Shown: positions 2,533 to 57,751 of the stretch, piece by piece
Layout of the letters: each line of letters starts with the position of its first letter
Numbering within the stretch: the first letter of the stretch is position 1
Source of the DNA: Escherichia phage JacquesWildberger_Bas92
DNA: 64,000 nt
Sequence record: PQ850610.1
Direction: 5' to 3' (one strand)
Program-made: the position numbers and the translations under genes
Notes under the pieces: generated by a model
What the model saw: the letters and a program-made list of their open reading frames with translations, nothing else
What the model was told of the DNA's origin: nothing
Databases searched by the model: none

Positions 2533-3050
2533 ACAGTGTGACTGTTAGCCCTGCGTCTGTAGAAAGTCTAGAGACAGGGGCTACTCAGCAGTTTACTGCA
2601 AGCGCTGAGAAGAGTGACGGCTCTACCGAAACAACTGGCTTTACTTGGTCAGTAACAGGAGGCGGCTCTATCACTCAGTCTGGTTTGTATACTGCTCCGA
2701 GTGCGGCTCAATCCACTGATGTATCCATTACTGCGACTTTAGAGGGTGTTTCTGGTACAGCAACCATTTCTGAAATTGTTGATCCTGCCCCTACTATTGT
2801 AGCTAAGGGTCCAATTACAGGTAAAACTGGTGGTTCTTCCACTAACTTCACTACCATGTTTACTGTAACTAATTCTACTGCTGCGGATTACACGTTTGTT
2901 GTAACCCCTGAAGAAGCTGGTACAGTAAGCGCTGCTGGTGCGTTAACCTTAGATGATGCTGCAAGTGGCGAAGTTACTGTTCAAGCAAGTTTGACAGCTG
3001 ACCCGTCCATCAATGCAACATGCACTTTTACTGGTGTAACACCTGCTTAA
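2508..3050 (+). CDS. C-terminal extension of the capsid protein via -1 frameshift (Ig-like, Big_2-type domain)
   Basis: -1 frame is open from slippery heptamer GGGAAAG (2508-2514) to 3050; no RBS before the nominal GTG at 2538; translation shows a beta-rich Ig-like domain (TGATQQFTASAEKSDGS...WSVTGGGSITQSGLYTAP). Confidence 0.55.
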   Translation, partial: GKVGSATVDSVTVSPASVESLETGATQQFTASAEKSDGSTETTGFTWSVTGGGSITQSGLYTAPSAAQSTDVSITATLEGVSGTATISEIVDPAPTIVAKGPITGKTGGSSTNFTTMFTVTNSTAADYTFVVTPEEAGTVSAAGALTLDDAASGEVTVQASLTADPSINATCTFTGVTPA

Positions 3051-3109: not shown

Positions 3110-3118
3110 TAATGTATA
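3110..3118 (+). promoter_or_regulatory. TAATGTATA motif (candidate phage-sigma promoter element)
   Basis: Exact TAATGTATA 34 nt upstream of the ATG at 3152, directly after a terminator; same 9-mer recurs upstream of other genes. Confidence 0.45.
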
Positions 3119-3151: not shown

Positions 3152-3904
3152 ATGGCAATGCCAGATGTTCAATACCCCATCAATACCTATGGGTGGCTAA
3201 AGAAGGCCGTGGCCCTCTGGGCAGATAGGGACGATGACGAATTTGTTAATCAAATTCCAAACTTTATTAACTTTGCAGAGAAAGAGATTTATCGTAACTT
3301 ACGTATCCCTCCTCTGGAAAAAGAAGTGTATTTAGATATTAAAGATGGAGTAGCTTACATTCCTCCTGATTACCTAGAAGCTCAATGGATGATGAGAGCC
3401 AAAGATGGTACAATCTTCCAAGTAACCTCTCCTGAAGAGATTAGCTATCGTAGACAGCATGGAACAATTAATCCATCTCATTGGAATAACCAACCTGTTA
3501 ACTTTGCTCGTTTCGGTAGTCGTTTCATTTTCTACCCTAGCATCGAAGCAGATACTCCGTACTACCCTGATGATGGAAGCCCTTTGATTCCAGCAGAAAA
3601 CTCAGTAATTCTTAGCTATTATGCAGACCCACCGGAATTCCACGAAGATGAAGATACTAGTGCAATCCTCACTATCGCACCAGAACTTCTTCTGTATTTC
3701 ACTCTGCGTCATGCTTGCTTATTTGTTCAAGATGATAACGGAGTTCAGAAATGGTCAGCATTAGGAAAAGCTATCCTTGATGAAATGGTAGAACAGAATA
3801 AGAAACAAGAGTACTCAGGTTCACCTATCGCAATTCCGAATAACATGACTCGACTTCAGAGCAGCTTGCCTGATATTTATGGTATTCGTACTTCTCGTGT
3901 ATAA
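3152..3904 (+). CDS. virion structural protein (tail or adaptor region), function not assignable
   Basis: 250 aa ORF with AAGGAGG RBS; position between capsid and fibre genes. Confidence 0.55.
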   Translation: MAMPDVQYPINTYGWLKKAVALWADRDDDEFVNQIPNFINFAEKEIYRNLRIPPLEKEVYLDIKDGVAYIPPDYLEAQWMMRAKDGTIFQVTSPEEISYRRQHGTINPSHWNNQPVNFARFGSRFIFYPSIEADTPYYPDDGSPLIPAENSVILSYYADPPEFHEDEDTSAILTIAPELLLYFTLRHACLFVQDDNGVQKWSALGKAILDEMVEQNKKQEYSGSPIAIPNNMTRLQSSLPDIYGIRTSRV

Positions 3905-3913
3905 GGAGATAAT

Positions 3914-6562: not shown

Positions 6563-6571
6563 ATAAAACAT

Positions 6572-6590
6572 GCTCCCTTCGGGGAGCTTT
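6572..6590 (+). terminator. possible terminator
   Basis: Hairpin gctccc-ttcg-gggagc followed by a short T run. Confidence 0.4.
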
Positions 6591-6604
6591 ATGGAGGATT
6601 ATAA

Positions 6605-8794
6605 ATGTCTAGAGAATTAATGCCCAAATCTGGGATAATGATGCCTCATGTGGTAGTTACTAGAGATGCCGCAGTTGTGGGTGTGTCTACAGTTGATGGC
6701 GTGGCAGGTGCTGTTAATTTAACAGATAAATATCTACAAAAGTCTGATGCTGAAGCAACATATCAAACGAAAGCAGAAGGGGCTACTAAGCAATATGTAA
6801 CCGATGCTATTAACCCTATTATGACAAATGCTCTGTTTAAAGATGACCCTTTTGTCAATAATGATACACCTATCCGCTCTGGTGGTGGTAATGGTGTTGA
6901 ATCAGTGGATATGATTAAAGTTACTCCCGAGAACTCTATCAAACTAGGGAGTTATGCTTCTTCTGTTCAGGGGGTTGAGATTCACTCTGCTGGTCGTGTT
7001 CAGGTTGTTGATCAGAATGATGGTGGAGTAGAAACTAAGTATCCTGTTTATTCTAAACGTTATCGTCCTGAGATTGAGGATTTGCCTTTTGCTGCTATTG
7101 GTTCTTATGTTAAAGATTCCAAGGGTCGTACTATTGGGGTTACTCGTACAGGGATTAACTCTGATATCAAACAGCTTACTCAGAAGGTGACTTTCACTCA
7201 ACCAGTTACTGTTCCTGATGCAGTTGGAGATTATGATGCGGTTACTTTGAGACAGCTTCGAAACAGTGGTGGTGGTTCTGGTGGTCCTACCATGAGTGGT
7301 ATTTCTAACTTTGGTATTGGTGATTTCCACTTACGAGACAGTCGAGCTTTTATCCCAGCTTTTGAAGTGTTTTCTGATGGGCAGCTTCTAAATCGTGCTG
7401 ATTATCCAGACCTGTGGGCTTATGCACAGCTGTTATCCCCTATTGAAGACTCTTTGTGGCTAGAAGACCCTTATCAAAGAGGCAGATACTCTAAGGGTGA
7501 TGGCACAACTACTTTCCGTGTTCCAGACCGAAATGGTATTCAGTCTAATTCCCTTCCGGCTCTTTATGGACGAGGTGATGGTGGTGCTTCCGCAGCTAAT
7601 GGTCAAGTGTTTGATTCTGCGGCCCCAGACATTATCGGCTCTGTTGCATCATACTCTGCTGGAACTTATGCCCAGCTTTTTGGAATAGCTACCAATGCAT
7701 TTGAATCTAACAATGCCTTCTTTCCTGAAGGTGCAGGGGATACAATACCTCCGGGGTCTGGGCCAGTCGATGGTCGATATAACACTATTGAGTTTAAGGC
7801 TTCCAGATATAATGGAATTTACGGTCGCAGTAACTCAGAAATCATGGGTCGTAACTTTGTAGGTGTTTGGACTATTCGTGCGCATGGTGGTTTTACTGCT
7901 GCTAATACTTCTTGGTCAGTAATCAATAGTGATGCTTCAGAACCACCTACAGGTACTCCTATTACTGGTGGATTGGTTTCTTCTAAGTATGTAGTCGGAG
8001 GTGTTGATAAGTACCGTTCTTCCATACAACTACTAGGTGCTAACGAAGTTGATCTGTCTACGAGAATTACCACCATAAATGATAGATATGCAATTGGGGC
8101 AGCTACTTGGGATTTTAAACTGGATGGGAAACTACTTTTTAATAAATCACTTACCCCCAATGGGACAGGCTATTCTCCCGGAAACACCTATCTAACATTA
8201 GCCAACACTTGGATGACCTCTCCTTATAGTGGGTATGTTGGGTTTGTTGGGGGCGGCGTTGGTGTTTCTGGTGGCGGTTGGAGAAACTTCATCTCTTTAG
8301 GTTCTTTGATTTTCCCTGATACGAGTCATCCTACTGCTGTTATTTCTCAGGTTTATGATTATGACCTTTCTACAGGAAACCAACCTAATGGGGATATTGT
8401 CAGAAATACCTCTTTCAATGCTGGGAGTTATGATATCACTTTCGGTAACAACTCCGGTACAGTAAACTACCTCTTCAGTAAGTCCCCTGTGTCTGATGAG
8501 AATAAAAAGCATGATATCACCCCCATCAGTACAGAACAAGCCCTTCTTAATATAAACAAGATGAAATACAGCTCATTCATCTATAATTATGATGAGAAGA
8601 ATATTGTTCGCAGAGGCTTTATTGCTCAGCAACTAGAGAAGATTGACAGTCAATATGTACGTAAGTACAAAGATGCTACTGGAGGTGAAACACTCTCTTT
8701 GGATGAGAACGTTCTGCTTTTGGATGCACTAGCTGCAATCCAAGAACTTACCAAAAAGGTTGAAGTTCTAGAAGCGAAGTTAGCAGGTAAGTAA
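6605..8794 (+). CDS. tail fibre or tailspike with C-terminal intramolecular chaperone-like domain
   Basis: 729 aa; C-terminal about 100 aa (DENKKHDITPISTEQALLNINKMKYSSFIY...GFIAQQLEKIDSQYV...LLDALAAIQEL) resembles the self-cleaving chaperone domain of endosialidase or L-shaped fibre proteins. Confidence 0.65.
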   Translation: MSRELMPKSGIMMPHVVVTRDAAVVGVSTVDGVAGAVNLTDKYLQKSDAEATYQTKAEGATKQYVTDAINPIMTNALFKDDPFVNNDTPIRSGGGNGVESVDMIKVTPENSIKLGSYASSVQGVEIHSAGRVQVVDQNDGGVETKYPVYSKRYRPEIEDLPFAAIGSYVKDSKGRTIGVTRTGINSDIKQLTQKVTFTQPVTVPDAVGDYDAVTLRQLRNSGGGSGGPTMSGISNFGIGDFHLRDSRAFIPAFEVFSDGQLLNRADYPDLWAYAQLLSPIEDSLWLEDPYQRGRYSKGDGTTTFRVPDRNGIQSNSLPALYGRGDGGASAANGQVFDSAAPDIIGSVASYSAGTYAQLFGIATNAFESNNAFFPEGAGDTIPPGSGPVDGRYNTIEFKASRYNGIYGRSNSEIMGRNFVGVWTIRAHGGFTAANTSWSVINSDASEPPTGTPITGGLVSSKYVVGGVDKYRSSIQLLGANEVDLSTRITTINDRYAIGAATWDFKLDGKLLFNKSLTPNGTGYSPGNTYLTLANTWMTSPYSGYVGFVGGGVGVSGGGWRNFISLGSLIFPDTSHPTAVISQVYDYDLSTGNQPNGDIVRNTSFNAGSYDITFGNNSGTVNYLFSKSPVSDENKKHDITPISTEQALLNINKMKYSSFIYNYDEKNIVRRGFIAQQLEKIDSQYVRKYKDATGGETLSLDENVLLLDALAAIQELTKKVEVLEAKLAGK

Positions 8795-8800
8795 TCTAGT

Positions 8801-8818
8801 AGCCCCTTCGGGGGCTTT
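8801..8818 (+). terminator. possible terminator
   Basis: Hairpin agcccc-ttcg-ggggct followed by TT. Confidence 0.35.
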
Positions 8819-8888
8819 AGTAGTAAGTACCCTTAGTAAGTAATGAAACTAATATATCCCAAGAGGTTAATATATAGGAGACACTCAA

Positions 8889-9107
8889 ATGAAAATGATG
8901 AAACAAGCTGCATATGGTTTAGTTTGTTTAGGTGCAGGTGTTGTGGTGTCAACCGCAGTTCCTGTAGGCGCAGTTCTTCCATTAGTAACTGTCCCTGCTC
9001 CAGTAGAGAAACTTAGTTCTCAATGTAAGCAGCGAACCATTCAAAATAATCTAGTTGTTATTTGTCCTGATGCTGAATCTAACGCTCTGAGAAAGATACT
9101 ACCTTAA
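8889..9107 (+). CDS. small membrane protein (holin candidate)
   Basis: 72 aa with a single long hydrophobic segment; immediately upstream of lysozyme; RBS taggag. Confidence 0.4.
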   Translation: MKMMKQAAYGLVCLGAGVVVSTAVPVGAVLPLVTVPAPVEKLSSQCKQRTIQNNLVVICPDAESNALRKILP

Positions 9108-9136
9108 TTTAAAGGGACCACAAAAGGAGGTTAGAA

Positions 9137-9628
9137 ATGGATAACGCCGCATTGCCACCTGTACAACTAAACTTAAGTCCAGCTGGAATGGAATTCATCA
9201 TGAAGCATGAGGGTATGAGAACCAAGGCTTATAAAGATTCCGCAGGTATCTGGACGATATGTGTAGGGGCTACGCGCGATATGAATGGTTATCCGGTTAG
9301 ACAAGGATTAACGTATTCTATAGAGGATTGTCTAGCTCTGCTAGATAGAGACACACAAGACTCTGTTCGTGCTACTCAGAAGAACATAAAGGTTCCTTTA
9401 CTAGTTCATGAGTTTGATGCACTCACTTCTTTCAGCTTCAATGTTGGCAGTGGTGCTTTGAGCACATCTAAGTTAAGGAAGGTTATCAATGGAGAGGTCA
9501 AAGGTGATGTATACTCAGAGTTTCTTCGTTGGGATAAAATTACGGTGAATGGAGAGAAGCAGAGGAGTCAGGGTCTTCATAACAGAAGGGTTGCAGAAGC
9601 TGATCTTTACACCGAAGGTAAATATTAA
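9137..9628 (+). CDS. lysozyme (GH24, T4-lysozyme-like), likely endolysin
   Basis: 163 aa; catalytic pattern E-x8-D-x5-T (HEGMRTKAYKDSAGIWTICVG); RBS aaggagg. Confidence 0.8.
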   Translation: MDNAALPPVQLNLSPAGMEFIMKHEGMRTKAYKDSAGIWTICVGATRDMNGYPVRQGLTYSIEDCLALLDRDTQDSVRATQKNIKVPLLVHEFDALTSFSFNVGSGALSTSKLRKVINGEVKGDVYSEFLRWDKITVNGEKQRSQGLHNRRVAEADLYTEGKY

Positions 9629-9640
9629 TGGAGGTGCCTT

Positions 9641-10444
9641 TTGGCTATCGAAACTAATGCGGTAGTTGTTACCGATTTAAACCCGCTCTATCCTAGAGAC
9701 AGGGATTACATCTACGAAGGGGCGGCTCAAATCCGCCTCATTAAACAAACATTACAGAACACATTCCCAAATGTTACAGAGCCAGTTCAGTTGGACTCAG
9801 ATTCTCTCAATATTCTGGCTAGCAAAGTTACCTTTACTGGTGACTCTATGGATGTTGGTGGGTTGATGATCAAGAATGCCACTCCGGGTACAGGTGATAG
9901 CGATGTTGTCACTAAAGGCCAGATGGAAGCTTTCATGCAGAACTGGATGGCTAATAAACTTTACAGGATTGGCTCTTACTATATCACTGAAGAAGATATT
10001 AACCCCGGTGATAGTTCTTCTCTTGGTTTTGGCTCTTGGGCTAAAGTGACTGGTGTCATTATGGGTACTGGTGTAGTAAACCCTGATGGCTCTGTCCCTA
10101 ATGCTCAGAGAGTTGAGTTCCAAGCAGGTGGTACTGGTGGTCGTGTCTTCAATACCATTCGAACAGAGAACGTACCTTTGATGACAGTTAATGGCTCCAG
10201 CTTCTCCTTATCCAGTAACACCCACAGCCACAATATGGTATTTGGTCGTGGAGATGCTAGTGGTCATAACAGCTCACCAAACTGGTATAGTCCAGGTGGT
10301 GGTTACAGTCAGAGAACTGATAATGACACTCACACTCATACAATCTCTGGTAGTGTAAGTCTTGGTCGTGATGATATCTCTCGTCAACCTATTAACACTT
10401 TGCCACCATTCAGAGCAGCTCACATTTGGAGACGTATTAGCTAA
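9641..10444 (+). CDS. virion structural protein (fibre or collar-like)
   Basis: 267 aa ORF with apparent TTG start preceded by GGAGGT; Gly and Ser-rich C-terminus. Confidence 0.5.
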   Translation: MAIETNAVVVTDLNPLYPRDRDYIYEGAAQIRLIKQTLQNTFPNVTEPVQLDSDSLNILASKVTFTGDSMDVGGLMIKNATPGTGDSDVVTKGQMEAFMQNWMANKLYRIGSYYITEEDINPGDSSSLGFGSWAKVTGVIMGTGVVNPDGSVPNAQRVEFQAGGTGGRVFNTIRTENVPLMTVNGSSFSLSSNTHSHNMVFGRGDASGHNSSPNWYSPGGGYSQRTDNDTHTHTISGSVSLGRDDISRQPINTLPPFRAAHIWRRIS

Positions 10445-10453
10445 GGAGGAATT

Positions 10454-13400
10454 ATGGCGCTGTATCCAATAAAGTCACTAGGTGCTGTAGGCGTTATCGC
10501 TGATCAGGCTCCGACAGACTTAGCTCCTAATGCTTTCACTAATGCTATAAATGCTCGATTTGTTGAGCAGAGAGTGTTTAAGACGGGGGGCAATGCCCCT
10601 CTTTCTTATGTAGATGAAGATAAGGATTTAACCCCTCTGTCTTTCGTGTCTATGCCTTTCGATTATTATAGCGCAGGTAATAGCTTTCTTGTTGTAGGTA
10701 CGAATAAGAAGTTATATAAACTGACAGATGAAAGCTTGACTGACATTAGCCGTAAGGTTGCTACAGTCACTAAGAAGGCTTCTGCCTCAATTAAGATCTA
10801 TCCAGTTGTTTCTCAAATCGTTCCTAAAGAATCAACTATTTCAATGAACTTCAATCAGACTAAGAATCTAGAAGTTTCTCTTCTTCCTGCTGATGCTAAC
10901 AATACCGACCTTGTTTGGGAGGTTAGTAATTCAACCTATGGAAGTATTGCAGTAGACCCTAATGATTCTAAACTTGCTACTCTAACATCTTTTGAGAGAG
11001 AGGGGAATCTTGTAGTAACCATCTCTACTGCTGATGGTTCTGTAGTGGCTCAGATTGCTGTGAACATTATAGATGGTGATTCGGGAATCTTCTTGAGTCA
11101 GGACACTGTTACTATCCGTAAAGGAGGGACTACCACTCTTACGGCTGTTACTGGTAAAACCCCTGTTACTTGGTCTAGCAGTAATGCTTCTATTGTATCC
11201 GTAACCCCTAACGCTAATTCTCTAACTGCTGTTATTACTGCTAATGGTGAGGGCAACGTAACAATCACTGCCGATAATGGAACGAAGACTGCTTCTTGTG
11301 AGGTTGTTTCTATACCTCAGATTGATAGCATCTCTTTAAGCCAGTCGGATGTTATTGTAAGCAGAGGTTCTCAGTACATCTTAACTGCTACCCTTTCTCC
11401 TGCTGATGCCCCTAATCAAAACATTACTTGGACCTCTTCTAATCCAAATATTGCAACAGTATCAGGGACTAGTACACAAGGGACGATCAATGCCTTACTT
11501 GCTGGATTTACTGAGATTACGGCTACCACTGAAGAAGGTAACAGAGTTGCTGTCTGTACTGTACGAGTAGATTTAGCTGGAAGGGCGATGAGAACAAGTG
11601 CTATGGCATTTGCTGCACCTGCATCAGAACCAATTGAATCACAAGAGGAAGAAGTAGTAACTTCTCCTGAAAGTGAAGAGACGGTTTATTTTGCTGATCC
11701 TGTGTCTGGTATCGATACGTCAGGGATGTATGAAGGTAATAACTTCTACGACTACTCTAACGTGAACGACATTGAAGGTTTTGCAAGAGCTTCTTTACTA
11801 GAAACCCCTTTGTCATCCGTAACCTTGGATGTTGTCAGTGCTTCTCTTGATGTTGGTGAGGAAATAGTTATTACAGCTACAGCTTCTCCAGAAGGTGAGT
11901 ATTCCTATCAGTGGTCTGTCGATAAGACTGGTTATGTTTCTACAACTTCAGTTACTGGTAAATCTATCAAACTGGTTGCTCTTCGTAAAGGAGAGATTAA
12001 CGTAACATGTACTGTCAGTCAGATGACTCAGAAAGATTACGATGCTTTTGATGACTACCCTTGGTATCACGCTGTTATCTCTAACTGTGCAGTTGCTACA
12101 ACTCACTATGAAACTCCTCAGGTAAAAGAGTTCGAATCAGAATACTTTGTAGACCTTCCGGGGTGGGGTGAGCAAACAGTTGTTGATAGTGATGGAAACC
12201 CTTCAGTCAAAAAGTTTAACTGGAAATGTGAGAGAGTAAGATCTTTTAACAACCGTCTTTTTGCTCTGAATATGAGAGAGGCTAATGCTTCTGGTGTTAC
12301 CACTAACTACCCTCTTCGTCTTCGTTGGTCTAATTTTGCCAACGAGAACAAAGCTCCTACTTTATGGGATGACTTTGCCTATGATCGAGTTGTGTCTTCG
12401 GACTTGGCTTCTAACATCGTAGGACAGACTCAGGCTTTAGAAAATGGATATGCTGGTTACATCGACTTAGCTGACTCTAACGGCAGCTTGATTGATATCC
12501 TACCTCTTAAAGATTACTTGTTCGTTTATACAGAGTTTGAAACGTACATTGGTTCTCCAACTAATAACACGTACCAACCTCTGATGTTCAAGAAACTCTT
12601 TAACGATTCCGGTATCCTTGCTCCTGAGTGTGTAGTAGAAGTTGAAGGTAGTCATTTCGTAGTTACTCAGAACGATGTAATCTTACACAATGGTGCAACT
12701 AAGAAGTCAATCGCTTCTAACCGTGTTAAGAATATGCTAATTAATGAGATATGTCTGGTTAACCCTTTAGCTACTCGAGTACATTTGCATCAGGATAAGA
12801 AAGAAGTTTGGATTCTGTACGTAGGTCCGGGAGAACCAAAAGAAAGCTTCGCTTGTACTAAAGCTGCTGTATGGAACTACGAGTTTGATACTTGGTCCTT
12901 CCGTACTATTCCTTATGCTCAGTGTATCGGTCTAGTTGACCCTCCTGTTTTAGAGAGAGGTCCAATCTGGTCTGACTTCCAAGAGATCACTTGGGATGAC
13001 CAATCTATCAAAGAACTCGTTTGGAGAAAGGATGCAACAAACTTTAGACAGAGGGTTACGATAGTAGGTTCGTTCTTGAGGGGGTTCTATCAAGTGGATG
13101 TAGGTGCTCTTGATTATTTCTATGATAGGCTTAATGATAAGATTATAGAAAAACCACTGGAGATGAGGTTAGAGAGAACTGGCATTGATTTTGATAACAT
13201 CACTAATGAGTGGAATCAAAAGCATATCAATAGGTTCAGACCTCAGACGACAGGTTCTGGTACGTATACTTTTGAGGCGGGTGGTAGTCAATTCTCTAAC
13301 GAGTATGGTCATCCACATACATCCAAGACGTATACGATTGGTGTTGATAGGCATGTCTCGGTGAGACTGAACCATCCATACCTTTTCTATAATGTTATAG

Positions 13401-13471
13401 ATAATGATGTTAACAGCAATGCTGCTATCAATGGATTAACGATAGAGTTTGCTGTTGGCGGGCGGAGATAA
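10454..13471 (+). CDS. large tail-associated structural protein with Ig-like (Big_2-type) domains
   Basis: 1005 aa; several Ig-like segments (e.g. residues about 120-380); RBS aaggagg. Confidence 0.6.
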   Translation: MALYPIKSLGAVGVIADQAPTDLAPNAFTNAINARFVEQRVFKTGGNAPLSYVDEDKDLTPLSFVSMPFDYYSAGNSFLVVGTNKKLYKLTDESLTDISRKVATVTKKASASIKIYPVVSQIVPKESTISMNFNQTKNLEVSLLPADANNTDLVWEVSNSTYGSIAVDPNDSKLATLTSFEREGNLVVTISTADGSVVAQIAVNIIDGDSGIFLSQDTVTIRKGGTTTLTAVTGKTPVTWSSSNASIVSVTPNANSLTAVITANGEGNVTITADNGTKTASCEVVSIPQIDSISLSQSDVIVSRGSQYILTATLSPADAPNQNITWTSSNPNIATVSGTSTQGTINALLAGFTEITATTEEGNRVAVCTVRVDLAGRAMRTSAMAFAAPASEPIESQEEEVVTSPESEETVYFADPVSGIDTSGMYEGNNFYDYSNVNDIEGFARASLLETPLSSVTLDVVSASLDVGEEIVITATASPEGEYSYQWSVDKTGYVSTTSVTGKSIKLVALRKGEINVTCTVSQMTQKDYDAFDDYPWYHAVISNCAVATTHYETPQVKEFESEYFVDLPGWGEQTVVDSDGNPSVKKFNWKCERVRSFNNRLFALNMREANASGVTTNYPLRLRWSNFANENKAPTLWDDFAYDRVVSSDLASNIVGQTQALENGYAGYIDLADSNGSLIDILPLKDYLFVYTEFETYIGSPTNNTYQPLMFKKLFNDSGILAPECVVEVEGSHFVVTQNDVILHNGATKKSIASNRVKNMLINEICLVNPLATRVHLHQDKKEVWILYVGPGEPKESFACTKAAVWNYEFDTWSFRTIPYAQCIGLVDPPVLERGPIWSDFQEITWDDQSIKELVWRKDATNFRQRVTIVGSFLRGFYQVDVGALDYFYDRLNDKIIEKPLEMRLERTGIDFDNITNEWNQKHINRFRPQTTGSGTYTFEAGGSQFSNEYGHPHTSKTYTIGVDRHVSVRLNHPYLFYNVIDNDVNSNAAINGLTIEFAVGGRR

Positions 13472-13477
13472 CAACAA

Positions 13478-13505
13478 GGGGCTTCGTGCCCCTTTTATTG
13501 TTTTT
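13478..13505 (+). terminator. rho-independent terminator
   Basis: Hairpin ggggc-ttcgt-gcccc followed by ttttattgttttt. Confidence 0.55.
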
Positions 13506-13515
13506 GGAGGAACTT

Positions 13516-14484
13516 ATGGGTGCAGGTGGTTTTCGTAAGAACACTGGTCGCAATAACACCACACTCCCGTACAACGTTGGGTTTCTCAATAATGTACAGG
13601 ACACAGAAACTTATAACGTAGCCGTTTATGATGAACTACAGAAAGTCAGCACAGCTACTAACCAAATGTTCCAAGCTATAGATGAAATTCACGAAGAGAT
13701 TGATGTTCGTATCAAAGCTCTTCATGCGATGAATCTACAATTTGATGAGCTTGAGAATAGAATTACTACAGAGATAGAAACAGCTATTGCAGACATTCAA
13801 ACACAGATGGGGAACCTCTCCACTGATGATATTTGGGATAACTCTGTTCAACCTCCGGTAAAGCTAGAAAGCACAGTATCTGGCTTTAAGACAAGTATTG
13901 AAGGTAACACAACTAAAATACAGACTGTCGAAGGTATTGTTAATGATCAAGGTCAAGAGATTGCTTTAGTTCAGACAGAGATTCAAAACATTAATGGAAG
14001 CCTATCTCAGTATATGAAGCTCTCTGAGTATGAAGCTACGTGGGGTGTTAACTCTTCTGTTAATGGTCAGTACGCTGGAGTTAAGCTAACTAACAACGGA
14101 ACAAACAGTCAATTCCAAGTAACCGCTAACAAGTTTGTTGTCGGTGATGGTACGACAGGGAATACACCATTTGTGTTTGAGAATGGAAGAGCTAGGATGG
14201 AGTTCGCTGATATAAAGAACGTCAACATCACAACAGCTCAGGTTGCCAACGCTAGGATTCAGTGGGCACAGATTGATAACGTATCCATCTCCAACGCCCA
14301 AATTCAGAACTTGTCAGCGGATAAAATCACTGCTGGTTCTATGTGGGGTTCTAACTGGAGACTTACTGTTGGGGGTGACTTTGTTATGGGCGGCACAGGT
14401 GGGGCACAATTGTGGATGAATGGGAACAGGATAGACTTCTATGATGGAAGTGGTGCTCTGAGAATTAGGATAGGGAGTTGGTGA
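13516..14484 (+). CDS. virion structural protein
   Basis: Track ORF begins at 13486 inside the terminator; the ATG at 13516 preceded by GGAGG is the likelier start. Confidence 0.5.
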   Translation: MGAGGFRKNTGRNNTTLPYNVGFLNNVQDTETYNVAVYDELQKVSTATNQMFQAIDEIHEEIDVRIKALHAMNLQFDELENRITTEIETAIADIQTQMGNLSTDDIWDNSVQPPVKLESTVSGFKTSIEGNTTKIQTVEGIVNDQGQEIALVQTEIQNINGSLSQYMKLSEYEATWGVNSSVNGQYAGVKLTNNGTNSQFQVTANKFVVGDGTTGNTPFVFENGRARMEFADIKNVNITTAQVANARIQWAQIDNVSISNAQIQNLSADKITAGSMWGSNWRLTVGGDFVMGGTGGAQLWMNGNRIDFYDGSGALRIRIGSW

Positions 14485-14485
14485 T

Positions 14486-15505
14486 ATGGCATATGGAATA
14501 TGGTGTCAACCGGTAGGTCCGGGGCCAGCCGCCCCTGCCTCTCTTTTTATAGATAGTAATTTAACATTTCCACAATATCTAGGAGCATACAACATATCTC
14601 CTTCGTGGAGTGCTAGAAATGCTTCTTTTAACGTAGGCTCTTTTGATGGTCAAGGTGAGTTATTAATTGTCCCGACTAGTAGACTTATTCAAGATTATTA
14701 TGTAGGGACAGATTTAATGCCTAGTTTTAGTTATGTAACAGGTATAGGGACTTCTGGACAAACAGTAAATATTAACATAGAGCCTGCTGGAGCTAGTGGT
14801 AACAATAACAGAAACTTCCCAATGTCTTTCCAAGCATATAAACTCTGGCCTAGAGGTAATAGAAGCTACGGAATAACTTTCTCAAACTCAGCAGATTTCT
14901 TTTCTATCTCTGATAGTGGGGTTGTTGGTCAGTGTGTTTGGGCGTACAGAGGGGCTGTAGGAGACGGTTTTACTGTCCCTAATGCTGGCCCCAACGCTCT
15001 AGTATTTGCCAACTGGAATCAGGGTGGGGTGTGTGCTTCTTACAACGCAAGCAACGGTCAAATGATCATAACCCACGATAGATCAAACCAGTCTGGCAGT
15101 AACAGAGGTGCAGTAATATATGATATGAGAATTGCTGTTTTTGCTAGTGGTGTGGGTGTACCAGAACATAATGGAGGTCTGAATATATACTCTCCCGGAA
15201 CTACAACTTGTGTATTCTCTACTTACAGGACTCCGTTTGCTATCAGCAGGTTCTTCCCATCTAGTGGGGGTTATACAGGTCTAGGCATTCCTATGATGTG
15301 TATGAATGTCACTAATGGAGCCATAACAGCGCAAGGTGGTGGATGGATGTGGGTTCATGAAAGATCTCATACAATGAGTGGTACGTCAGTAGGAACAGGC
15401 TTTGGCCCACTCGTGGCTAACTGGACTGACCGATACCCAATCAACGTTAACATAAACCTAGGATTCAATTACCCAATGTTGGAAGGTTCTTTAATTTATG
15501 CATAA
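14486..15505 (+). CDS. virion structural protein
   Basis: 339 aa ORF tightly packed after the previous gene. Confidence 0.5.
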   Translation: MAYGIWCQPVGPGPAAPASLFIDSNLTFPQYLGAYNISPSWSARNASFNVGSFDGQGELLIVPTSRLIQDYYVGTDLMPSFSYVTGIGTSGQTVNINIEPAGASGNNNRNFPMSFQAYKLWPRGNRSYGITFSNSADFFSISDSGVVGQCVWAYRGAVGDGFTVPNAGPNALVFANWNQGGVCASYNASNGQMIITHDRSNQSGSNRGAVIYDMRIAVFASGVGVPEHNGGLNIYSPGTTTCVFSTYRTPFAISRFFPSSGGYTGLGIPMMCMNVTNGAITAQGGGWMWVHERSHTMSGTSVGTGFGPLVANWTDRYPINVNINLGFNYPMLEGSLIYA

Positions 15506-15514
15506 GGAGATATT

Positions 15515-16297
15515 ATGGCAATTAGAATGGGTATCGAAGAACTAGACCCAATGGTGCAACAGGCTTCAAAGAAGTATGGAATACCAGCTGCTTTGATTCA
15601 TGCTGTAATCCAAAGGGAGTCTAGCGGTCGTCCTACGGTGGCCTCCGGAACTGGTCCTGTAGGTTTAATGCAGATCAGTAAAGGGGTAGCCAAAGATTAT
15701 GGTTACAAACTAGAAGATAGACTTGACCCGGCAAAGAACATTGATATGGGTGCTCGTTACATCAGAGACAATCTGAAAGCTTTTAATGGTGATGTTAAGA
15801 AAGCGATGGTTGGTTATTCAGAAGGTATTAGTGGTGCTAAGCAGATGTTCGCTGGTAAAAGAGGTTTTACTTCTCAGGCTCTTGACTCAATGAATAACAA
15901 ACACTTTCTCCCTTTCTATGGTGACGCATCTTCTCAGATTGCTAACCCTATTGGAGCTTTACAAGCTGTTCAGCCCGTCAACCAGTTCAGTTCGGACTAT
16001 TTAGATAGAGAGAAGGCTGCACAAGCTCCAACTCAGGCAGAGATTGCTGCTTCTAAGACAGGTGCTTTAGGCGGTAATCCTGTAGGGTTTTACTCTGATG
16101 AAGTGCAGGAAGGTGAAGACCAGAAGCCCCAACAGAACTTTGGTAATGCAGTATTAGGGGTGGCTGCTATGCTTGCTGGTAAACCTCCTACCTCTCAAAC
16201 AGTTCAGAGGGCAAGTGCACCTCATGCAGCAGGTTCTCAGTACAGCCCACAAACACAAGCAGTGCTTAGACGTCTGGCTAGCATTGGTGTTAAGTAA
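15515..16297 (+). CDS. lytic transglycosylase (SLT domain) virion protein
   Basis: 260 aa; SLT catalytic region (AVIQRESSGRP...GLMQI...Y). Confidence 0.7.
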   Translation: MAIRMGIEELDPMVQQASKKYGIPAALIHAVIQRESSGRPTVASGTGPVGLMQISKGVAKDYGYKLEDRLDPAKNIDMGARYIRDNLKAFNGDVKKAMVGYSEGISGAKQMFAGKRGFTSQALDSMNNKHFLPFYGDASSQIANPIGALQAVQPVNQFSSDYLDREKAAQAPTQAEIAASKTGALGGNPVGFYSDEVQEGEDQKPQQNFGNAVLGVAAMLAGKPPTSQTVQRASAPHAAGSQYSPQTQAVLRRLASIGVK

Positions 16298-16316
16298 TAA
16301 TCGTTAAGGAGGACTT

Positions 16317-28457: not shown

Positions 28458-28516
28458 ATTTTAATTTCCTTATTTAATTTGAAAGATTGTTGCTCTCTTT
28501 GAGCGGTTATGTATAG

Positions 28517-28525
28517 TATACATTA
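28517..28525 (-). promoter_or_regulatory. TAATGTATA motif, minus strand
   Basis: Plus-strand tatacatta; about 60 nt upstream of the SSB start. Confidence 0.4.
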
Positions 28526-28588
28526 CGCTTATACCGATAAGAGTACTATATAATATAAGTATCTTTGGTAGTAGATATAACACACTAG

Positions 28589-28597
28589 TAATGTATA
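28589..28597 (+). promoter_or_regulatory. TAATGTATA motif, plus strand, no obvious plus-strand gene downstream
   Basis: Exact 9-mer in a 420 bp intergenic region. Confidence 0.3.
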
Positions 28598-28693
28598 TAT
28601 TGTATAGCTGATAAAGTTATTGCAGGCTTGTATATTGGGCAATTCATAGAATCCCTTGCAAGTACCGAAGGGCAGGAGCCACCTGCGAGATAA

Positions 28694-28759
28694 AAATAGA
28701 GAATTAAGGAATCCTTGATTTAGGTTGTAGGGACTCCTAGGGACTTTGATTCTCTATTT
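28694..28759. repeat. 11 bp inverted repeat (aaatagagaat / attctctattt) flanking a tagggact direct repeat
   Basis: Read directly from the sequence. Confidence 0.7.
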
Positions 28760-53155: not shown

Positions 53156-53649
53156 ATACCCTCCAATTAAACATTTATATAAGACTTGCTTAGATAAAGA
53201 TTCAATAAAATAGGGGGAGGGGACGAATCCTCCCTTATCCTATTAATTAGTATTGCATGTAAGACCTAACAATCGGTTTCCTTTGTAGGAATAAGCGTTA
53301 TGCTCATCCAGCACTAAACTCCCGCCCCCTTAGTGGGCTGGGTTATTAAAGGGTAACGCCCTTATGGGCTAGTTACGTGAATGTTAGTTTGATAGGAGAT
53401 CTGAAGTCCTATCTCAAAGGACTCTCGTAAGAATCCTTCACGATAAGCTCTTAATATACTAATCCGTGTAAGAGAAACACTCTCTTAGTTAACTCTGCTT
53501 TAGCTCTGTAATAAGCCGTAGAACCTAACAGGCGGCTCTTAACAAAGAACTTGATGTCATTGCTTACGTCTTGTATTAAACGCTCCTGTACAGCTTCTGA
53601 GGAGCTATTAATTGAATCAATTAACACCTTTGTAGATGTGTAATTCACA

Positions 53650-53931
53650 TCACCACTCCTTACCGGTTGTAGTTGTAGAGCCACCACACCACTGTGCATT
53701 AGATAAGGTTTTAGTCTCCTCATCCATTGCTGCACCATTCATGCATGAGATACCATTGTAACGCATATCAATTTCGCCAGAAGGAACCTTCTCACCTTTA
53801 TGCCAGCGAGATACACAAATACCTTCCACTGCTACTGCACACCATCCATCAGGACGGCTCTGTACGCAGCCTGTAAGGGCCACACAGACAATGAAGATAC
53901 AGATTAAGGATATTACACCACCCCAACTCAT
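53650..53931 (-). CDS. lipoprotein
   Basis: 93 aa; signal peptide with lipobox LTGC (ICIFIVCVALTGC). Confidence 0.5.
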   Translation of the reverse strand: MSWGGVISLICIFIVCVALTGCVQSRPDGWCAVAVEGICVSRWHKGEKVPSGEIDMRYNGISCMNGAAMDEETKTLSNAQWCGGSTTTTGKEW

Positions 53932-53950
53932 AACTATCTCCTAATTGATT

Positions 53951-53980
53951 TGGTGCGCCCTACAGGATTTGAACCTGTAA
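53951..53980 (-). pseudogene. tRNA 3' fragment (T-arm, acceptor 3' strand and CCA) without a 5' half
   Basis: Minus strand reads ACAGGTTCAAATCCTGTAGGGCGCACCA; no complementary GCGCCCT 5' strand or D/anticodon arms could be folded in the 79 nt up to the next tRNA. Confidence 0.35.
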
Positions 53981-54029
53981 CCAATAGCTTAGAAGTAAAA
54001 CTTCTATCCTTGTAATGAAGTTTTCATTG

Positions 54030-54104
54030 TGGCGTTCCCTCGTGGAATCGAACCACGAATAAGAGCTTAGAAGGCTCCAGTTATATCCGTTTAACTAAGG
54101 GAAC
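54030..54104 (-). tRNA. tRNA-Arg (anticodon UCU)
   Basis: 75 nt cloverleaf folded by hand: acceptor GTTCCCT/AGGGAAC, D stem GTTA/TAAC, anticodon stem GGAGC/GCTCT with loop CTTCTAA, T stem CGTGG/CCACG with loop TTCGATT, discriminator G, encoded CCA. Confidence 0.8.
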
Positions 54105-54110
54105 ATTACA

Positions 54111-54461
54111 ATGAAAACTTGCACAACCTGTCACACCCAAAAGGAAGATTCAGATTTTTACAAGAAAGGAGATCGACTTCATTCTATGTGTAAACAATGT
54201 TTCAATGCCTACTGTATTGAACGTTGGAGGCAAAGAAAGACTCAAGCGGTTAAAGATTTCGGAGGTAAATGTCATGACTGCAATCAAGAATACCCCGATG
54301 CAGTCTTTGATTTCCACCACCTAGACCCCTCTGAAAAAGATTTTGATTGGAATAAACTTAGACTCCGATCTATTGACTCTATCAGAGAAGAGTTAAGCAA
54401 GTGCGTAATGCTCTGTGCTAACTGCCACCGTATTCGTCACATTGATTACCCTATCCATTGA
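54111..54461 (+). CDS. HNH endonuclease (lone plus-strand gene in the minus-strand block)
   Basis: 116 aa; CxxC...C.DC...HHLDP...NCHRIRH pattern. Confidence 0.7.
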   Translation: MKTCTTCHTQKEDSDFYKKGDRLHSMCKQCFNAYCIERWRQRKTQAVKDFGGKCHDCNQEYPDAVFDFHHLDPSEKDFDWNKLRLRSIDSIREELSKCVMLCANCHRIRHIDYPIH

Positions 54462-54535
54462 GCTAAGAGCGCTTAATTTATTTAGATCATATCTCGCTTG
54501 GTGATAGGACCACACACTTTACATTCATACCAACC

Positions 54536-54787
54536 TTAAGCACATGCAGGGAGTGTGATGATTTCAGGTTTACCTTCGAACTCTTCAAACAAACCCAAGA
54601 ATGTAGGGCTATACGTACCAGTACAAACAAACTCATCAAAGAGTTCATTGTATGAGGGCTTAATCTTCCAAGCCCACACATAGCCCATCTTATCAATTGC
54701 AATGTAACGAGTGTTTAGAGGAACAGTCATCATCACACCATCAACTTCGACCACTTTAGTGATTGGTGCAGCTTGGAAGTTTTTCAT
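54536..54787 (-). CDS. hypothetical protein
   Basis: 83 aa ORF. Confidence 0.4.
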   Translation of the reverse strand: MKNFQAAPITKVVEVDGVMMTVPLNTRYIAIDKMGYVWAWKIKPSYNELFDEFVCTGTYSPTFLGLFEEFEGKPEIITLPACA

Positions 54788-54812
54788 ACTTTACCCTTAA
54801 TTAAAACAACAA

Positions 54813-54836
54813 AGGCCACCCGATTGGGCAGCCTTT
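54813..54836 (-). terminator. terminator-like hairpin with T runs on both sides
   Basis: aaaggccaccc-gatt-gggcagcc-tttttt; the same hairpin type recurs at 32935 and 27665. Confidence 0.45.
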
Positions 54837-55286
54837 TTTATTTGTTAACTGTTATAGATCCAATTACCTTGCTTGTTACGGATAGTGGACATTGCATGAA
54901 CCCAGAAGCCTTCCAGTTTCAGAGCACCATTAGTTACTGCATCCATACGTTCAGGGCGGTTCATACGTTTGGTTGATACTTTCATACCTATCTCTCTCTT
55001 TGTTAGTGGAGGCATTATTGCCAGTTGATATAGCAGATAACCCTATTAAAAGGACTACCGACTATCTAAACTGGTGAAGACTCCCTACCCCTAGAGAGTC
55101 TCCTGAATCCCAAACCAATATGTACCCCTACATATCGGAAAGTCTACCGAAAATTAACAGGTTTTAGTCTAACACCGGATGTTCGAGCAAGCTCTCCCTA
55201 GCGGTGTGGCATATGCCTGATTTAATAAGTTAATGAGGAACACCCTCACATAGCCCTCTGATAAGCACAAGGGCTATAAGTCGGTG

Positions 55287-56172: not shown

Positions 56173-56426
56173 TAGCTGGGCCGTTGTTATCAGAACTTGC
56201 TACCTCCTCTCAGGATAAAACACCTTTCATGTATGCCTTACTCGAAGCCCTCCTTGTGGCTTTTAGTATGGATTGCTTAGCCTTAGTCTTAGCTTCTTCT
56301 GTCATTCCATCAAAAACACCGAGCTTAGTTAGCTCCTTACTAGGAGGCTTATAGGAAGGGTTTAAAGCATTAGATAAATTATGACCATAGGCATGACCAC
56401 GGCACAATAAAGAAGAAAGATTAAGC

Positions 56427-56792
56427 CTATGGATTTACACATTGACCGTTACCGGATGCGATTTCATTCATTGACTCATCAAACAAGGTTAGGGATGAGC
56501 GCATCAAGTGATCGACCGTGATTTGTTTACCGGTAGTTTCATTTACCAGTTGAATAGTTTTATCATATGATTGCACATGATCGAAATCATTTACATGCAA
56601 AATAATAACTTTAGGTGACTTTTTACCAGTCGAATAGTTTTCTATCAAATAGGTGCACTGTAAACCTTCCACCGTATCAGGGGAAAATGTTGCAGCCTTT
56701 ACACTACCCATAGCCGATAGGAGAACGCCCAGCAGGAGAACGACCAGAAAAAAACCTACAACCATTTTAATGATGAATTTAATAAACCACAT
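56427..56792 (-). CDS. secreted or membrane-anchored protein
   Basis: 121 aa; N-terminal hydrophobic signal-like segment. Confidence 0.4.
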   Translation of the reverse strand: MWFIKFIIKMVVGFFLVVLLLGVLLSAMGSVKAATFSPDTVEGLQCTYLIENYSTGKKSPKVIILHVNDFDHVQSYDKTIQLVNETTGKQITVDHLMRSSLTLFDESMNEIASGNGQCVNP

Positions 56793-56895
56793 AACTATAA
56801 ACCTTTTAATCAGAGGATGTAAGAATAAAGCATATCAGCGACGAATAACGCCACTGTAACGACGAATAAGCAACGCCAGAAAAAATCATTAAGCA

Positions 56896-57141
56896 TCATT
56901 TTAATCCGTGATTCAGTAGGTTCGCCAGTGATAGCCCACCGTCAAAATAAATTGAACGGAAGTCATCGCGGGTAATTTCAATCCCTACAGCAGATAACCA
57001 ATCTTTGGCCTTTTTAAAATCCATGACGCAGAAAGTAACGGTCGGGATTATTACATCACCAGCTTGCAAGCTAAACGCAATAAAAGTATCACACACAAAA
57101 CAAGAAAATCCGCTAGACAATTTAACTTCTTTGATAGCCAT
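56896..57141 (-). CDS. hypothetical protein
   Basis: 81 aa ORF. Confidence 0.35.
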   Translation of the reverse strand: MAIKEVKLSSGFSCFVCDTFIAFSLQAGDVIIPTVTFCVMDFKKAKDWLSAVGIEITRDDFRSIYFDGGLSLANLLNHGLK

Positions 57142-57155
57142 AATTTTAACCCTTA

Positions 57156-57644
57156 TTATTTAGCACTGATGCAATTAGCTAGGTTGATGTGTACGGTATA
57201 AACCGCATTATTCTCACTATTGTAAACCGTGGTGGCAAGCATTGATTCGTTTATCGGGCCATAACTGACTAGATTTGTAACAGCTTTCGCATGTTTGTAA
57301 CGTTGTACAGTGCCAAATGTAACTAGTTCGGGATCGTTATCAGTGCGCTTTAATAGCAAATCATCATTGCCCTGATTATCTAGTGTTTTGGTACTAACGA
57401 CCAGACCATCACGGGAAACGTTACTAAATTTAACCTTTAAGACGATTTGATTGGTGTCACTATCCGCACCGTTACAGATTAACCATTTGTTAGGTGCATC
57501 CTTCACGAACAAACTAGCGGCATTATTAGCAGAAGCAGAACTAGCGATAGCGTTGTCAGAAAAAGAAGTTACCAGTGCACTGACACCGATGGCTGTAACC
57601 AGTGCATAACTTGCCAGATTAATAGTCTGCATTACTTTCGCCAT
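57156..57644 (-). CDS. secreted protein with signal peptide
   Basis: 162 aa; N-terminal signal-like sequence (LASYALVTAIGVSALVTSFS). Confidence 0.45.
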   Translation of the reverse strand: MAKVMQTINLASYALVTAIGVSALVTSFSDNAIASSASANNAASLFVKDAPNKWLICNGADSDTNQIVLKVKFSNVSRDGLVVSTKTLDNQGNDDLLLKRTDNDPELVTFGTVQRYKHAKAVTNLVSYGPINESMLATTVYNSENNAVYTVHINLANCISAK

Positions 57645-57751
57645 TTTTGCTACTCCTTAGATAGAATCAATTAACTATTGCCACTTCTATAATACAAAGA
57701 CGGTATTCAAGGTTACTACTCATACTTATACCTCCTGTTTTACGGGCATAA

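Follow-up and report, generated by a model that had tools for sequence, protein, structure and literature searches.

The tRNA locus of Escherichia phage JacquesWildberger_Bas92 (PQ850610.1) raises the question of how an orphan piece of a tRNA gene came to lie beside an intact tRNA-Arg(UCU) gene, which is itself bracketed by an inverted repeat and adjoined by a gene encoding an HNH endonuclease. The whole stretch of 64,000 nucleotides (nt) that was analysed is referred to below as the window. The original prediction had described the orphan as a 3′ fragment with no matching 5′ half, and had proposed either gain or decay of a tRNA gene, possibly mediated by the neighbouring homing endonuclease, or an att-like remnant. 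The explanation considered probable here is that the resident tRNA-Arg(UCU) gene of the phage was interrupted by a 451-bp mobile cassette that carries two genes, one for a homing endonuclease of the free-standing HNH kind and one for a complete tRNA-Arg(UCU) of foreign origin. The parts of the locus are the following.

53951-53995, minus strand: 3′ part of the resident tRNA-Arg(UCU) gene, 45/45 identical to the tRNA of phage LAMP, a presumably dead remnant.
53996-54446, 451 bp, no strand assigned: the cassette, with its bounds taken from the alignment to LAMP and three cassette-bearing kuraviruses.
53996-54029, plus strand: spacer at the left end of the cassette, holding the left arm of the inverted repeat.
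54018-54030, no strand assigned: left arm of the perfect 13-bp inverted repeat (AAGTTTTCATTGT), the last base of which is the A of the tRNA CCA.
54030-54104, minus strand: intact cargo tRNA-Arg(UCU) with encoded CCA, found by ARAGORN and, over its full length, by Rfam with 59.3 bits against a gathering score of 29.
54108-54120, no strand assigned: right arm of the inverted repeat (ACAATGAAAACTT), including the HNH start codon ATG (54111) and codons 2-3.
54111-54461, plus strand: gene for a free-standing HNH endonuclease of 116 amino acids (phrog_2255, E 1e-31), divergent from the cargo tRNA.
54447-54472, minus strand: 5′ part of the resident tRNA-Arg(UCU) gene, matching LAMP at 23/25, with substitutions at 54448 and 54450.

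In a megablast comparison of 53400-55000 with phage records, 98 records were matched, nearly all of them from Escherichia and Shigella phages of the phiEco32 group, with AidaStucki_Bas93 (99.8% identity over the matching parts) and LAMP at the top. By these matches the window belongs to Kuravirus, that is, to a phiEco32-like coliphage, and the matched group comprises Kuravirus and its relatives in the Gordonclarkvirinae. The genes around the tRNA site are all on the minus strand. LAMP and phiEco32 each have one tRNA-Arg(UCU) gene, which lies about 20 nt from the start of a lipoprotein gene, and an uninterrupted tRNA-Arg(UCU) gene directly follows the lipoprotein gene in most kuraviruses (LAMP, phiEco32 and about 50 records among the matches listed). 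In the window it is the fragment that occupies this position, again some 20 nt away from where the lipoprotein gene starts.

The 28-nt fragment of the original prediction is present at 53951-53978, and it forms the final 28 nt of a longer 3′ part of 45 nt (53951-53995). This part corresponds to tRNA positions 32-76 and comprises the anticodon loop with UCU, the 3′ strand of the anticodon stem, the variable loop, the T arm, the 3′ strand of the acceptor stem and CCA. The statement that it has no matching 5′ half proved wrong: the partner is found at 54447-54472, beyond the HNH gene, and corresponds to tRNA positions 1-26, i.e., the 5′ strand of the acceptor stem and the D arm. The acceptor strands of the two parts pair at 7/7 positions. 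On the plus strand the LAMP gene consists of tggtgcgccctacaggatttgaacctgtaaccaatagcttagaag, gctac and tgctctatccattgagctaagagcgc in succession; the window keeps the first 45 nt unchanged and the last 26 nt with the two substitutions, and the two halves are separated by 451 bp. The 5 nt absent from the split gene, GTAGC, constitute the 5′ strand of the anticodon stem. The HNH open reading frame (ORF) runs into the 5′ part, its final five sense codons and the TGA stop (54459-54461) being D-arm sequence (54447-54461). Judged by this alignment, the orphan fragment and 54447-54472 are the two halves of one resident tRNA gene cut by the insertion. A second complete tRNA was found at 53951-54029 neither by ARAGORN nor by Rfam, in which the segment scored 17.1-18.6 bits, below the gathering score of 29.

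The insert between the halves has, along the plus strand, the order of a 34-nt spacer, the minus-strand tRNA-Arg(UCU), 6 nt and the plus-strand HNH ORF, which is the sole ORF of the 451 bp. Its assignment to the HNH endonucleases was taken from PHROGs and from the motif and profile of its family, because searches of the single sequence against Pfam, NCBIfam and PDB gave only spurious matches of the zinc-finger type. In an alignment of 28 homologues, C54, C57, H69, H70, C102, N104, C105 and H106 are invariant, and H110 nearly so, in the form C54xxC57 ... H69 H70 ... C102xN104 C105 H106. The family profile matches the HNH domain of McrA (E 3.7e-4) as well as the En domains of group II introns, and Pfam PF01844 is matched by 11 of the 28 family members, with a best E of 9e-6. 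With its catalytic motif conserved in this way, the ORF is predicted to encode an HNH (His-Me finger) endonuclease. Over the first 112 codons, the genes of the window, of phage TH38 and of the two phages Ptacy1532 and Ptacy1479 differ at 7-9 positions, with 0 nonsynonymous changes, and by this count the gene is under strong purifying selection; the ORFs of Ptacy1532 and Ptacy1479 are identical to each other. In the records the same gene is annotated with different starts, at 1697-1972 in Ptacy1532 (L004) and at 1622-1978 in Ptacy1479 (L006), and the split tRNA is unannotated in all the cassette-bearing records.

The other gene of the cassette, the intact tRNA-Arg(UCU), had been placed correctly by the original prediction. 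ARAGORN found it as the only tRNA, tRNA-Arg(tct), in the 64 kb. Its cloverleaf is canonical; the D loop contains GGAUA, C35/U36 and G73 are present, and the CCA end is encoded. These features are read as identity elements for ArgRS, and a functional tRNA-Arg(UCU) of the bacterial type is predicted. It is identical at 75/75 positions in the window, TH38, Ptacy1532 and Ptacy1479, and differs from the LAMP allele throughout the acceptor, D and T arms. Its closest match among the phage records is the tRNA-Arg of Klebsiella phage KP12 (Vequintavirinae), with 90.7% identity. By these comparisons the cargo tRNA is a foreign, incoming gene and not a copy of the resident one. Of the earlier suggestion that a tRNA was gained or decayed by way of the homing endonuclease, the direction thus stands, with an incoming tRNA and a remnant of the resident one, while the splitting of the latter by insertion had been missed.

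As had been noted from the anticodon, UCU reads the rare codon AGA, and the observation is both right and relevant. In 50 long ORFs of the window AGA accounts for 18.5% of the Arg codons (9.8 per thousand codons), with a concentration in the plus-strand structural genes, of which the AGA-rich ones are located at about 3900-16300. In a kuravirus the AGA share of Arg codons was reported as 20.2%, compared with 3.6% in E. coli K-12, and tied to the single tRNA-Arg(UCU) (PMC9965538). Destroying the resident tRNA with no substitute would probably be costly, and a replacement with the same anticodon would be close to neutral; a spare tRNA would be carried because the phage relies on the reading of AGA.

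Among the 98 matched records the cassette occurs elsewhere in only three, those of TH38, Ptacy1532 and Ptacy1479, with about 97% identity. The comparison of relatives proposed earlier therefore gives 3/98 records with the tRNA and the HNH gene and an uninterrupted tRNA in most of the listed kuraviruses. Up to 53934 the identity of Bas93 and the window is 99.8%, and from 54451 onward it is 100%; the two differ exactly at 53935-54450. The three other carriers share a 3′ half of the ev_rybdy3-type allele (45/45 in each) and have different 5′ halves. TH38 has a 5′ half (25/25) and a right flank of the SGF2/MN05 allele, and its 3′ half matches SGF2 at only 41/45. The 5′ half of Ptacy1532 is of the LAMP/ev_rybdy3 type (25/25), and that of Ptacy1479 is Bas89-like (24/26), with its 3′ half matching Bas89 at just 33/45. 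In the window both halves are of the LAMP type. The acceptor strands of TH38 and Ptacy1479 mismatch, with 6/7 positions paired, because their halves come from different alleles, and there is therefore no selection for the halves to pair. On this evidence the cassette has entered at least three resident alleles; on one side the crossover always lies only a few nt from the junction, and the other side was co-converted. Such a chimeric pattern would be expected for gene conversion initiated by a break at the insertion site and not for ordinary recombination over long flanks. Sporadic presence alongside empty-site alleles, recombination at the junction and co-conversion of the flank are the marks by which a homing gene would be recognised, and the cassette shows all three.

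The homologues of the HNH gene point in the same direction. In IMG/VR, 21 of the 51 loci encoding a homologue have tRNA genes within 1.5 kb, and the closest homologues (44-58% identity in the alignment; L012, L013, L015 and L033) touch a tRNA-Arg(tct) gene. L015 and L033 share the architecture of the window, namely a minus-strand tRNA-Arg, a divergent HNH gene and then an orphan tRNA 5′ half on the opposite strand; in L033 the TGA stop of the HNH gene falls at the same position of the D arm as in the window. An orphan 5′ half on the opposite strand directly after the HNH 3′ end is also found in L041/L042. Leaving Kuravirus aside, the phage records have their nearest homologues, of about 52% identity, within the tRNA arrays of Felixounavirus. 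By its neighbours, the family is linked to tRNA genes. The orphan 5′ halves, each consisting of an acceptor strand and D arm on the strand opposite to the HNH homologue, are located as follows.

L041/L042, approximately 1775-1800.
L012, approximately 1927-1957.
L015, 1860-1882.
L033, 1795-1820.

The contigs with such halves come from unrelated metagenomic phages, some of 149-395 kb, and the halves would escape tRNA finders. KP12 (L007), the source of the closest relative of the cargo tRNA, contains an unannotated HNH ORF of 140 amino acids (2562-2984, minus strand), 31% identical to the HNH protein of the window (E 2e-11). It lies directly upstream of a tRNA-Arg(UCU) that resembles the cargo tRNA, and overlaps its 5′ end. 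A tRNA 3′ fragment with T arm, acceptor strand and CCA (approximately 2452-2500) directly follows this KP12 tRNA-Arg(UCU), and at 3396-3470 ARAGORN reported a "tRNA-???" with a 2-nt anticodon.

The tRNA-Arg site of the kuraviruses is host to three unrelated HNH genes, of the phrog_2255 type, the phrog_14913 type and an SPO1-like type, each with a UCU tRNA or tRNA-like element of its own and a leftover of the resident tRNA. The three occupied sites are these.

Window, 53951-54472.
Bas93 (L001), 2044-2608.
Paul (L010), 1679-2310.

The Bas93 HNH gene (phrog_14913) adjoins the same resident 5′ half as that of the window, and no similarity between the two HNH genes was detectable; by this comparison the Bas93 gene is an independent invasion. 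Phage Paul carries the SPO1-like HNH gene, which is accompanied by a tRNA-Arg(UCU) of its own; of the resident tRNA a short piece of the 3′ end is left. In place of a canonical tRNA, Bas93 (2056-2134, minus strand) and Bas94 (L011, approximately 850-930, minus strand) have a tRNA-like element with a UCU anticodon loop, a T arm, an acceptor stem and a variable region of about 22 nt, in which 4 nt replace the D arm. Its Rfam tRNA score of 29.7 bits is just over the gathering score, and ARAGORN did not report it. Sequences with about 82% identity to this element are present in over 100 records from large myoviruses of E. coli and Klebsiella (among them phi92-like ones), and in a few cases they are labelled "tRNA-OTHER". 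A conserved tRNA-like RNA lacking a D arm would, if functional, be unusual in bacterial viruses.

From these comparisons we infer the following scheme, which covers cleavage by the HNH protein, the site that it would target, the cargo tRNA's immunity and a role of the repeat. In a mixed infection, a kuravirus free of the cassette would have its uninterrupted tRNA-Arg gene nicked or cut by the HNH endonuclease, close to the boundary of the D stem and the anticodon stem. The break would then be repaired from the cassette-bearing genome, by which the cassette would be copied into the gene. The insertion would kill the resident tRNA, with the 5′ strand of its anticodon stem lost and its halves 451 bp apart, and the spare tRNA of the same anticodon would keep AGA readable. 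The split site would no longer be cleavable, its target having been divided, and the spare tRNA, which differs in the region of the D arm and the anticodon stem, would presumably be immune as well. Around the site, AGAGCA-N5-CTTCTAAG is common to the three invaded alleles, compared with ATAACT-N5-CTTCTAAG in the cargo tRNA, and the ATAACT difference may explain the immunity. Finally, the 5′ leader of the HNH mRNA would include the cargo tRNA in antisense orientation, and the acceptor stem of this tRNA together with the repeat would bury the ribosome-binding site and the ATG, probably lowering the expression of the nuclease.

The left end of the cassette, the 34-nt spacer, is presumed to be the region of the HNH promoter and 5′ leader. 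In two distant cassettes, those of L015 and L033, sigma-70-like promoters (TTGCAA-17-TATAAA and TTGACA-16-TATAAC) lie at the equivalent place and are directed into the antisense tRNA and the HNH gene. L033 has TTCTATCCTGTA in common with TTCTATCCTTGTA of the spacer, and TTAGA-GT...TTCTATCCTGTA of L033 matches across the left junction of the window. The spacer is also weakly similar to a tRNA 5′ half: it contains TCTATCC, which is found at the start of the 5′ remnant too, and Rfam gives 17 bits over 53954-54021. The left end may thus include a rearranged piece of an older copy of the target, and the conclusion that the gene was split is unaffected by this.

Several points weigh against homing of a cassette as described. 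The evidence for homing is comparative, drawn from the sequences of the carriers and their relatives. With a cut-off of E 0.1, the HNH protein of the window by itself gave no match to a Pfam HNH model. A scan of 53400-55000 for sigma-70 promoters gave 0 sites, and AATGAA at 54014-54019 agrees at only 5/6 positions with AATGTA, the published promoter core of the phage sigma factor (gp36), a resemblance too weak to be treated as evidence. The insertion may have been a simple one or may have involved a partial duplication of the target. The conservation of the repeat arms is uninformative, and covariation cannot decide on their role, because the four copies are about 97% identical and the arms identical. 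Lastly, the element accompanying the Bas93-type gene has no D arm, and the proposition that the invader always brings a working spare is, on the sequences at hand, not a general rule that can be taken as proven.

It is also conceivable, although we regard it as unlikely, that the cassette originated in a single event of illegitimate recombination and was spread by ordinary homologous recombination, the HNH gene being a passenger or having another role. The genomes are mosaic in this region, with different left and right neighbours in Ptacy1532, TH38 and Ptacy1479, and no clear HNH promoter was found in 53400-55000, both of which agree with such a history. It would, however, place crossovers anywhere in the flanks, whereas the resident allele is kept up to the junction on the side of the 5′ half in three backgrounds. 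The 0 nonsynonymous changes in the HNH gene, indicating purifying selection, do not suit a passenger, and the recurrence of homologues at tRNA genes with orphan halves in unrelated phages, together with the presence of three unrelated HNH genes at one kuravirus site, also speaks against it.

Far less probable is an intron, of group I or another kind, situated in the anticodon region and spliced out to yield a functional tRNA. Bacterial and phage group I introns sit in the anticodon loops of tRNA genes, often with homing endonuclease genes, and the break at the boundary of the anticodon stem and loop would suit one. A search of 53500-54700 with Rfam gave no intron family even when matches up to E 10 were admitted. 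Once the tRNA and the ORF are subtracted, just about 40 nt of the insert are left, and this ORF is encoded on the opposite strand. Exact excision could not restore the tRNA, 5 nt of which are missing in the window in addition to the two substitutions, and in TH38 and Ptacy1479 the acceptor strands stem from different alleles (6/7). A group I intron was rejected on the grounds that there is no ribozyme match in Rfam, that the exon ends do not rejoin and that two of the four phages have mismatched acceptor strands.

Equally hard to credit is the reading of the fragment as an integrase att remnant, the second possibility raised by the original prediction, or as a tandem paralogue of the intact tRNA that has decayed: tRNA genes are common targets of integrative elements, which leave partial repeats of them behind, and UCU is present in both the fragment and the intact tRNA, but the insert encodes no integrase (its sole ORF being the HNH gene) and no direct repeat of the tRNA 3′ end regenerates the gene, the fragment is the resident allele and the intact tRNA Vequintavirinae-like, so that they are not duplicates, and the matching 5′ half beyond the HNH gene makes the pieces complementary halves and not repeats. 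The att element was accordingly discarded, the break lying at the anticodon stem with 5 nt missing, and with neither an integrase nor a regenerating repeat.

The perfect 13-bp inverted repeat around the cargo tRNA was found exactly where the original prediction had put it, with the start of the HNH gene in its right arm. Together with the acceptor stem it forms arms of 23 nt (54018-54040 and 54098-54120) that are 87% complementary. With an 11-nt seed and a spacing of up to 150 nt, only two local inverted repeats were detected in the window, of which this one is the longer. The segment 54005-54135 folds as a cloverleaf on a long stem on both strands, with z = -5.6 for the plus strand and z = -5.0 for the minus strand. 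In the plus-strand fold the Shine-Dalgarno-like AAGGGAA (54097-54103) and the ATG are paired; in the minus-strand fold the cloverleaf sits atop the 13-bp stem, with a 3x3 internal loop at CCA. The arms are identical in all four cassette-bearing phages. Equally long repeats lie by the tRNA or tRNA-like elements of Paul (20 nt, 95%) and Bas93 (20 nt, 100%), and in both phages they leave the HNH start uncovered. The loci bearing such repeats are as follows.

Window, 54018-54120.
Paul (L010), 2210-2310.
Bas93 (L001), 2044-2147.

A repeat of 20-23 nt extending the acceptor stem is thus present in 3/3 HNH-bearing kuravirus variants, compared with 0/3 HNH-free ones (LAMP, phiEco32 and Bas94), and the arm sequences are unrelated among the three. 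No such repeat was found in the flanks of the KP12 tRNA or in L012, L013, L015 and L033. On this sample of loci the repeat is specific to the kuravirus cassettes and, within the kuraviruses, tracks the presence of an HNH gene.

Three roles may be considered for the repeat. Tentatively, it could form with the antisense acceptor stem a helix of the plus-strand HNH mRNA in which the ribosome-binding site and the ATG are hidden, so that translation of the nuclease is throttled. The predicted fold (z = -5.6), in which both are paired, agrees with this, and as coding constrains the right arm, the left arm would be the adapted side. The promoters of L015 and L033 would make the antisense tRNA the leader of the HNH gene, and hairpins that sequester the ribosome-binding site are documented as regulators of the homing endonucleases I-TevI, I-TevII, I-TevIII, segB and Aeh1 mobE (PMC2988022). 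Against a translational role stand the repeats of Paul and Bas93, equally long but away from the HNH start, and the lack of such a repeat in L015 and L033.

Somewhat less plausible is a helix between leader and trailer in the minus-strand early transcript, serving as a processing site, e.g., for RNase III, from which the cargo tRNA would be freed. The minus strand folds equally well (z = -5.0), and a helix of 20-23 nt in the sense orientation underlies the tRNA or tRNA-like element in all three HNH-bearing kuravirus variants. However, the resident tRNAs at the same position of the operon in LAMP and phiEco32 do without it, and so does Bas94, in which the tRNA-like element is that of Bas93 and the HNH gene is missing. 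Since the helix is absent from these three HNH-free phages, it follows the HNH gene and not a need for tRNA processing.

The repeat might also, with about as little likelihood as the processing site, be a footprint with no function, left when nuclease-induced repair next to the acceptor-stem palindrome extended and perfected this palindrome by template switching. The correction of quasipalindromes by template switching is an established mutational mechanism. A footprint would agree with an extension found in 3/3 HNH-bearing and 0/3 HNH-free variants, with unrelated sequences and with near-perfect complementarity (100%, 95% and 13/13); Bas93, moreover, resembles a "perfected" form of the imperfect Bas94 flank. 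This account is purely inferential and comes from a small sample, and later regulatory use of the helix would be compatible with it. If it is true, repair induced by the nuclease next to the tRNA palindrome generates long perfect inverted repeats around cargo tRNAs.

Among the known systems, T4 SegB is the documented analogue of the proposed homing. SegB is a GIY-YIG homing endonuclease encoded in a tRNA cluster. A motif of tRNA genes is recognised by the enzyme, and its gene is driven into T2L together with the neighbouring tRNA genes; in this homing neighbouring tRNA genes are carried into related phages and markers of the recipient are removed (PMC2330249). Common to both is a free-standing homing endonuclease gene among phage tRNA genes, and the SegB site includes a conserved tRNA-gene motif. 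Unlike SegB, the endonuclease of the window is of the HNH and not the GIY-YIG family, its gene lies inside one tRNA gene and not between such genes, and the cassette carries a substitute with the same anticodon; the phage, moreover, has one tRNA only and not a cluster. In Aeromonas phage Aeh1, mobE splits nrdA into "genes in pieces", the protein fragments of which reassemble. Like the HNH gene of the window, mobE is a free-standing HNH gene within a useful gene, with no intron or intein, and a hairpin governs the translation of MobE (PMC2988022). In the window, unlike in Aeh1, the split gene would be dead and its function kept by the spare copy of the cassette. With the group I introns of tRNA genes the cassette shares the tRNA target, the site near the anticodon stem and loop and the endonuclease gene aboard; it differs from them in having no ribozyme (by Rfam), in the loss of 5 nt, in an ORF on the opposite strand and in halves that are not joined, so that the function is replaced and not restored.

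Mobile endonuclease ORFs of mitochondria, e.g., in Allomyces atp6, bring a replacement for a part of the gene and leave the resident part as a pseudogene. The logic of carrying a substitute is the same there, but it concerns protein genes of an organelle and a partial, in-frame replacement as opposed to a whole phage tRNA gene. Integrase-bearing islands and prophages are alike in their tRNA target and the partial copy at one end, while the insert of the window, of 451 bp, has no integrase or regenerating repeat, breaks the gene at the anticodon stem and has cost it sequence. A full-text literature search gave SegB, MobE and the group I introns as precedents, and no account of a free-standing HNH gene that splits a tRNA gene of a phage and brings a replacement tRNA.

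Such an invasion would be a third way into a useful gene, in which the target is destroyed and a working substitute is carried, the usual routes being insertion between genes or self-splicing introns and inteins. It would offer a concrete route for the exchange of single tRNA genes between unrelated phage families and a reason for the tRNA fragments in the tRNA regions of phages. Whether the locus represents a widespread, undescribed class of cassettes is a possibility we entertain with rather less than even confidence; the members would be specialists for tRNA genes (in this clade tRNA-Arg(UCU)), with a spare of the same anticodon and with the antisense tRNA as a structured leader that controls translation of the nuclease. 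If so, the cassettes would shuttle tRNA genes between unrelated phage families, the cargo being Vequintavirinae-like and the nuclease near to those of the Felixounavirus arrays. For annotation it is worth mentioning that the tools show "one tRNA plus an HNH gene" and overlook the split gene, as they left the KP12 ORF unannotated. The phage of the window and Bas93, near-isogenic over the 4.6-kb Bas93 stretch and with different cassettes, could be used in crosses, for which LAMP and other kuraviruses provide empty sites. With a short conserved sequence of a tRNA gene as its putative target, the HNH endonuclease may serve as a tool in phage engineering.

Two further regions of the window may be mentioned. 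The motif TAATGTATA, which we take to be the extended promoter element of the phage sigma factor (gp36), is not enriched across the window at up to one mismatch (21 found, 20 expected), and the spacer of the cassette contains none. Its five exact copies are at 3110, 20058, 28517 (minus strand), 28589 and 33322 (minus strand). By our count three of the five lie near 28500-28600, adjoining the other local inverted repeat of the window (28694-28759), and this is probably a divergent region of middle or late promoters. At 56209-57728 the window has about 1.5 kb that are missing from Bas93 and LAMP, in which 56208 directly adjoins 57729. The segment holds three ORFs on the minus strand (56427-56792, 56896-57141 and 57156-57644), two of them with hydrophobic N-termini, and is another variable cassette.

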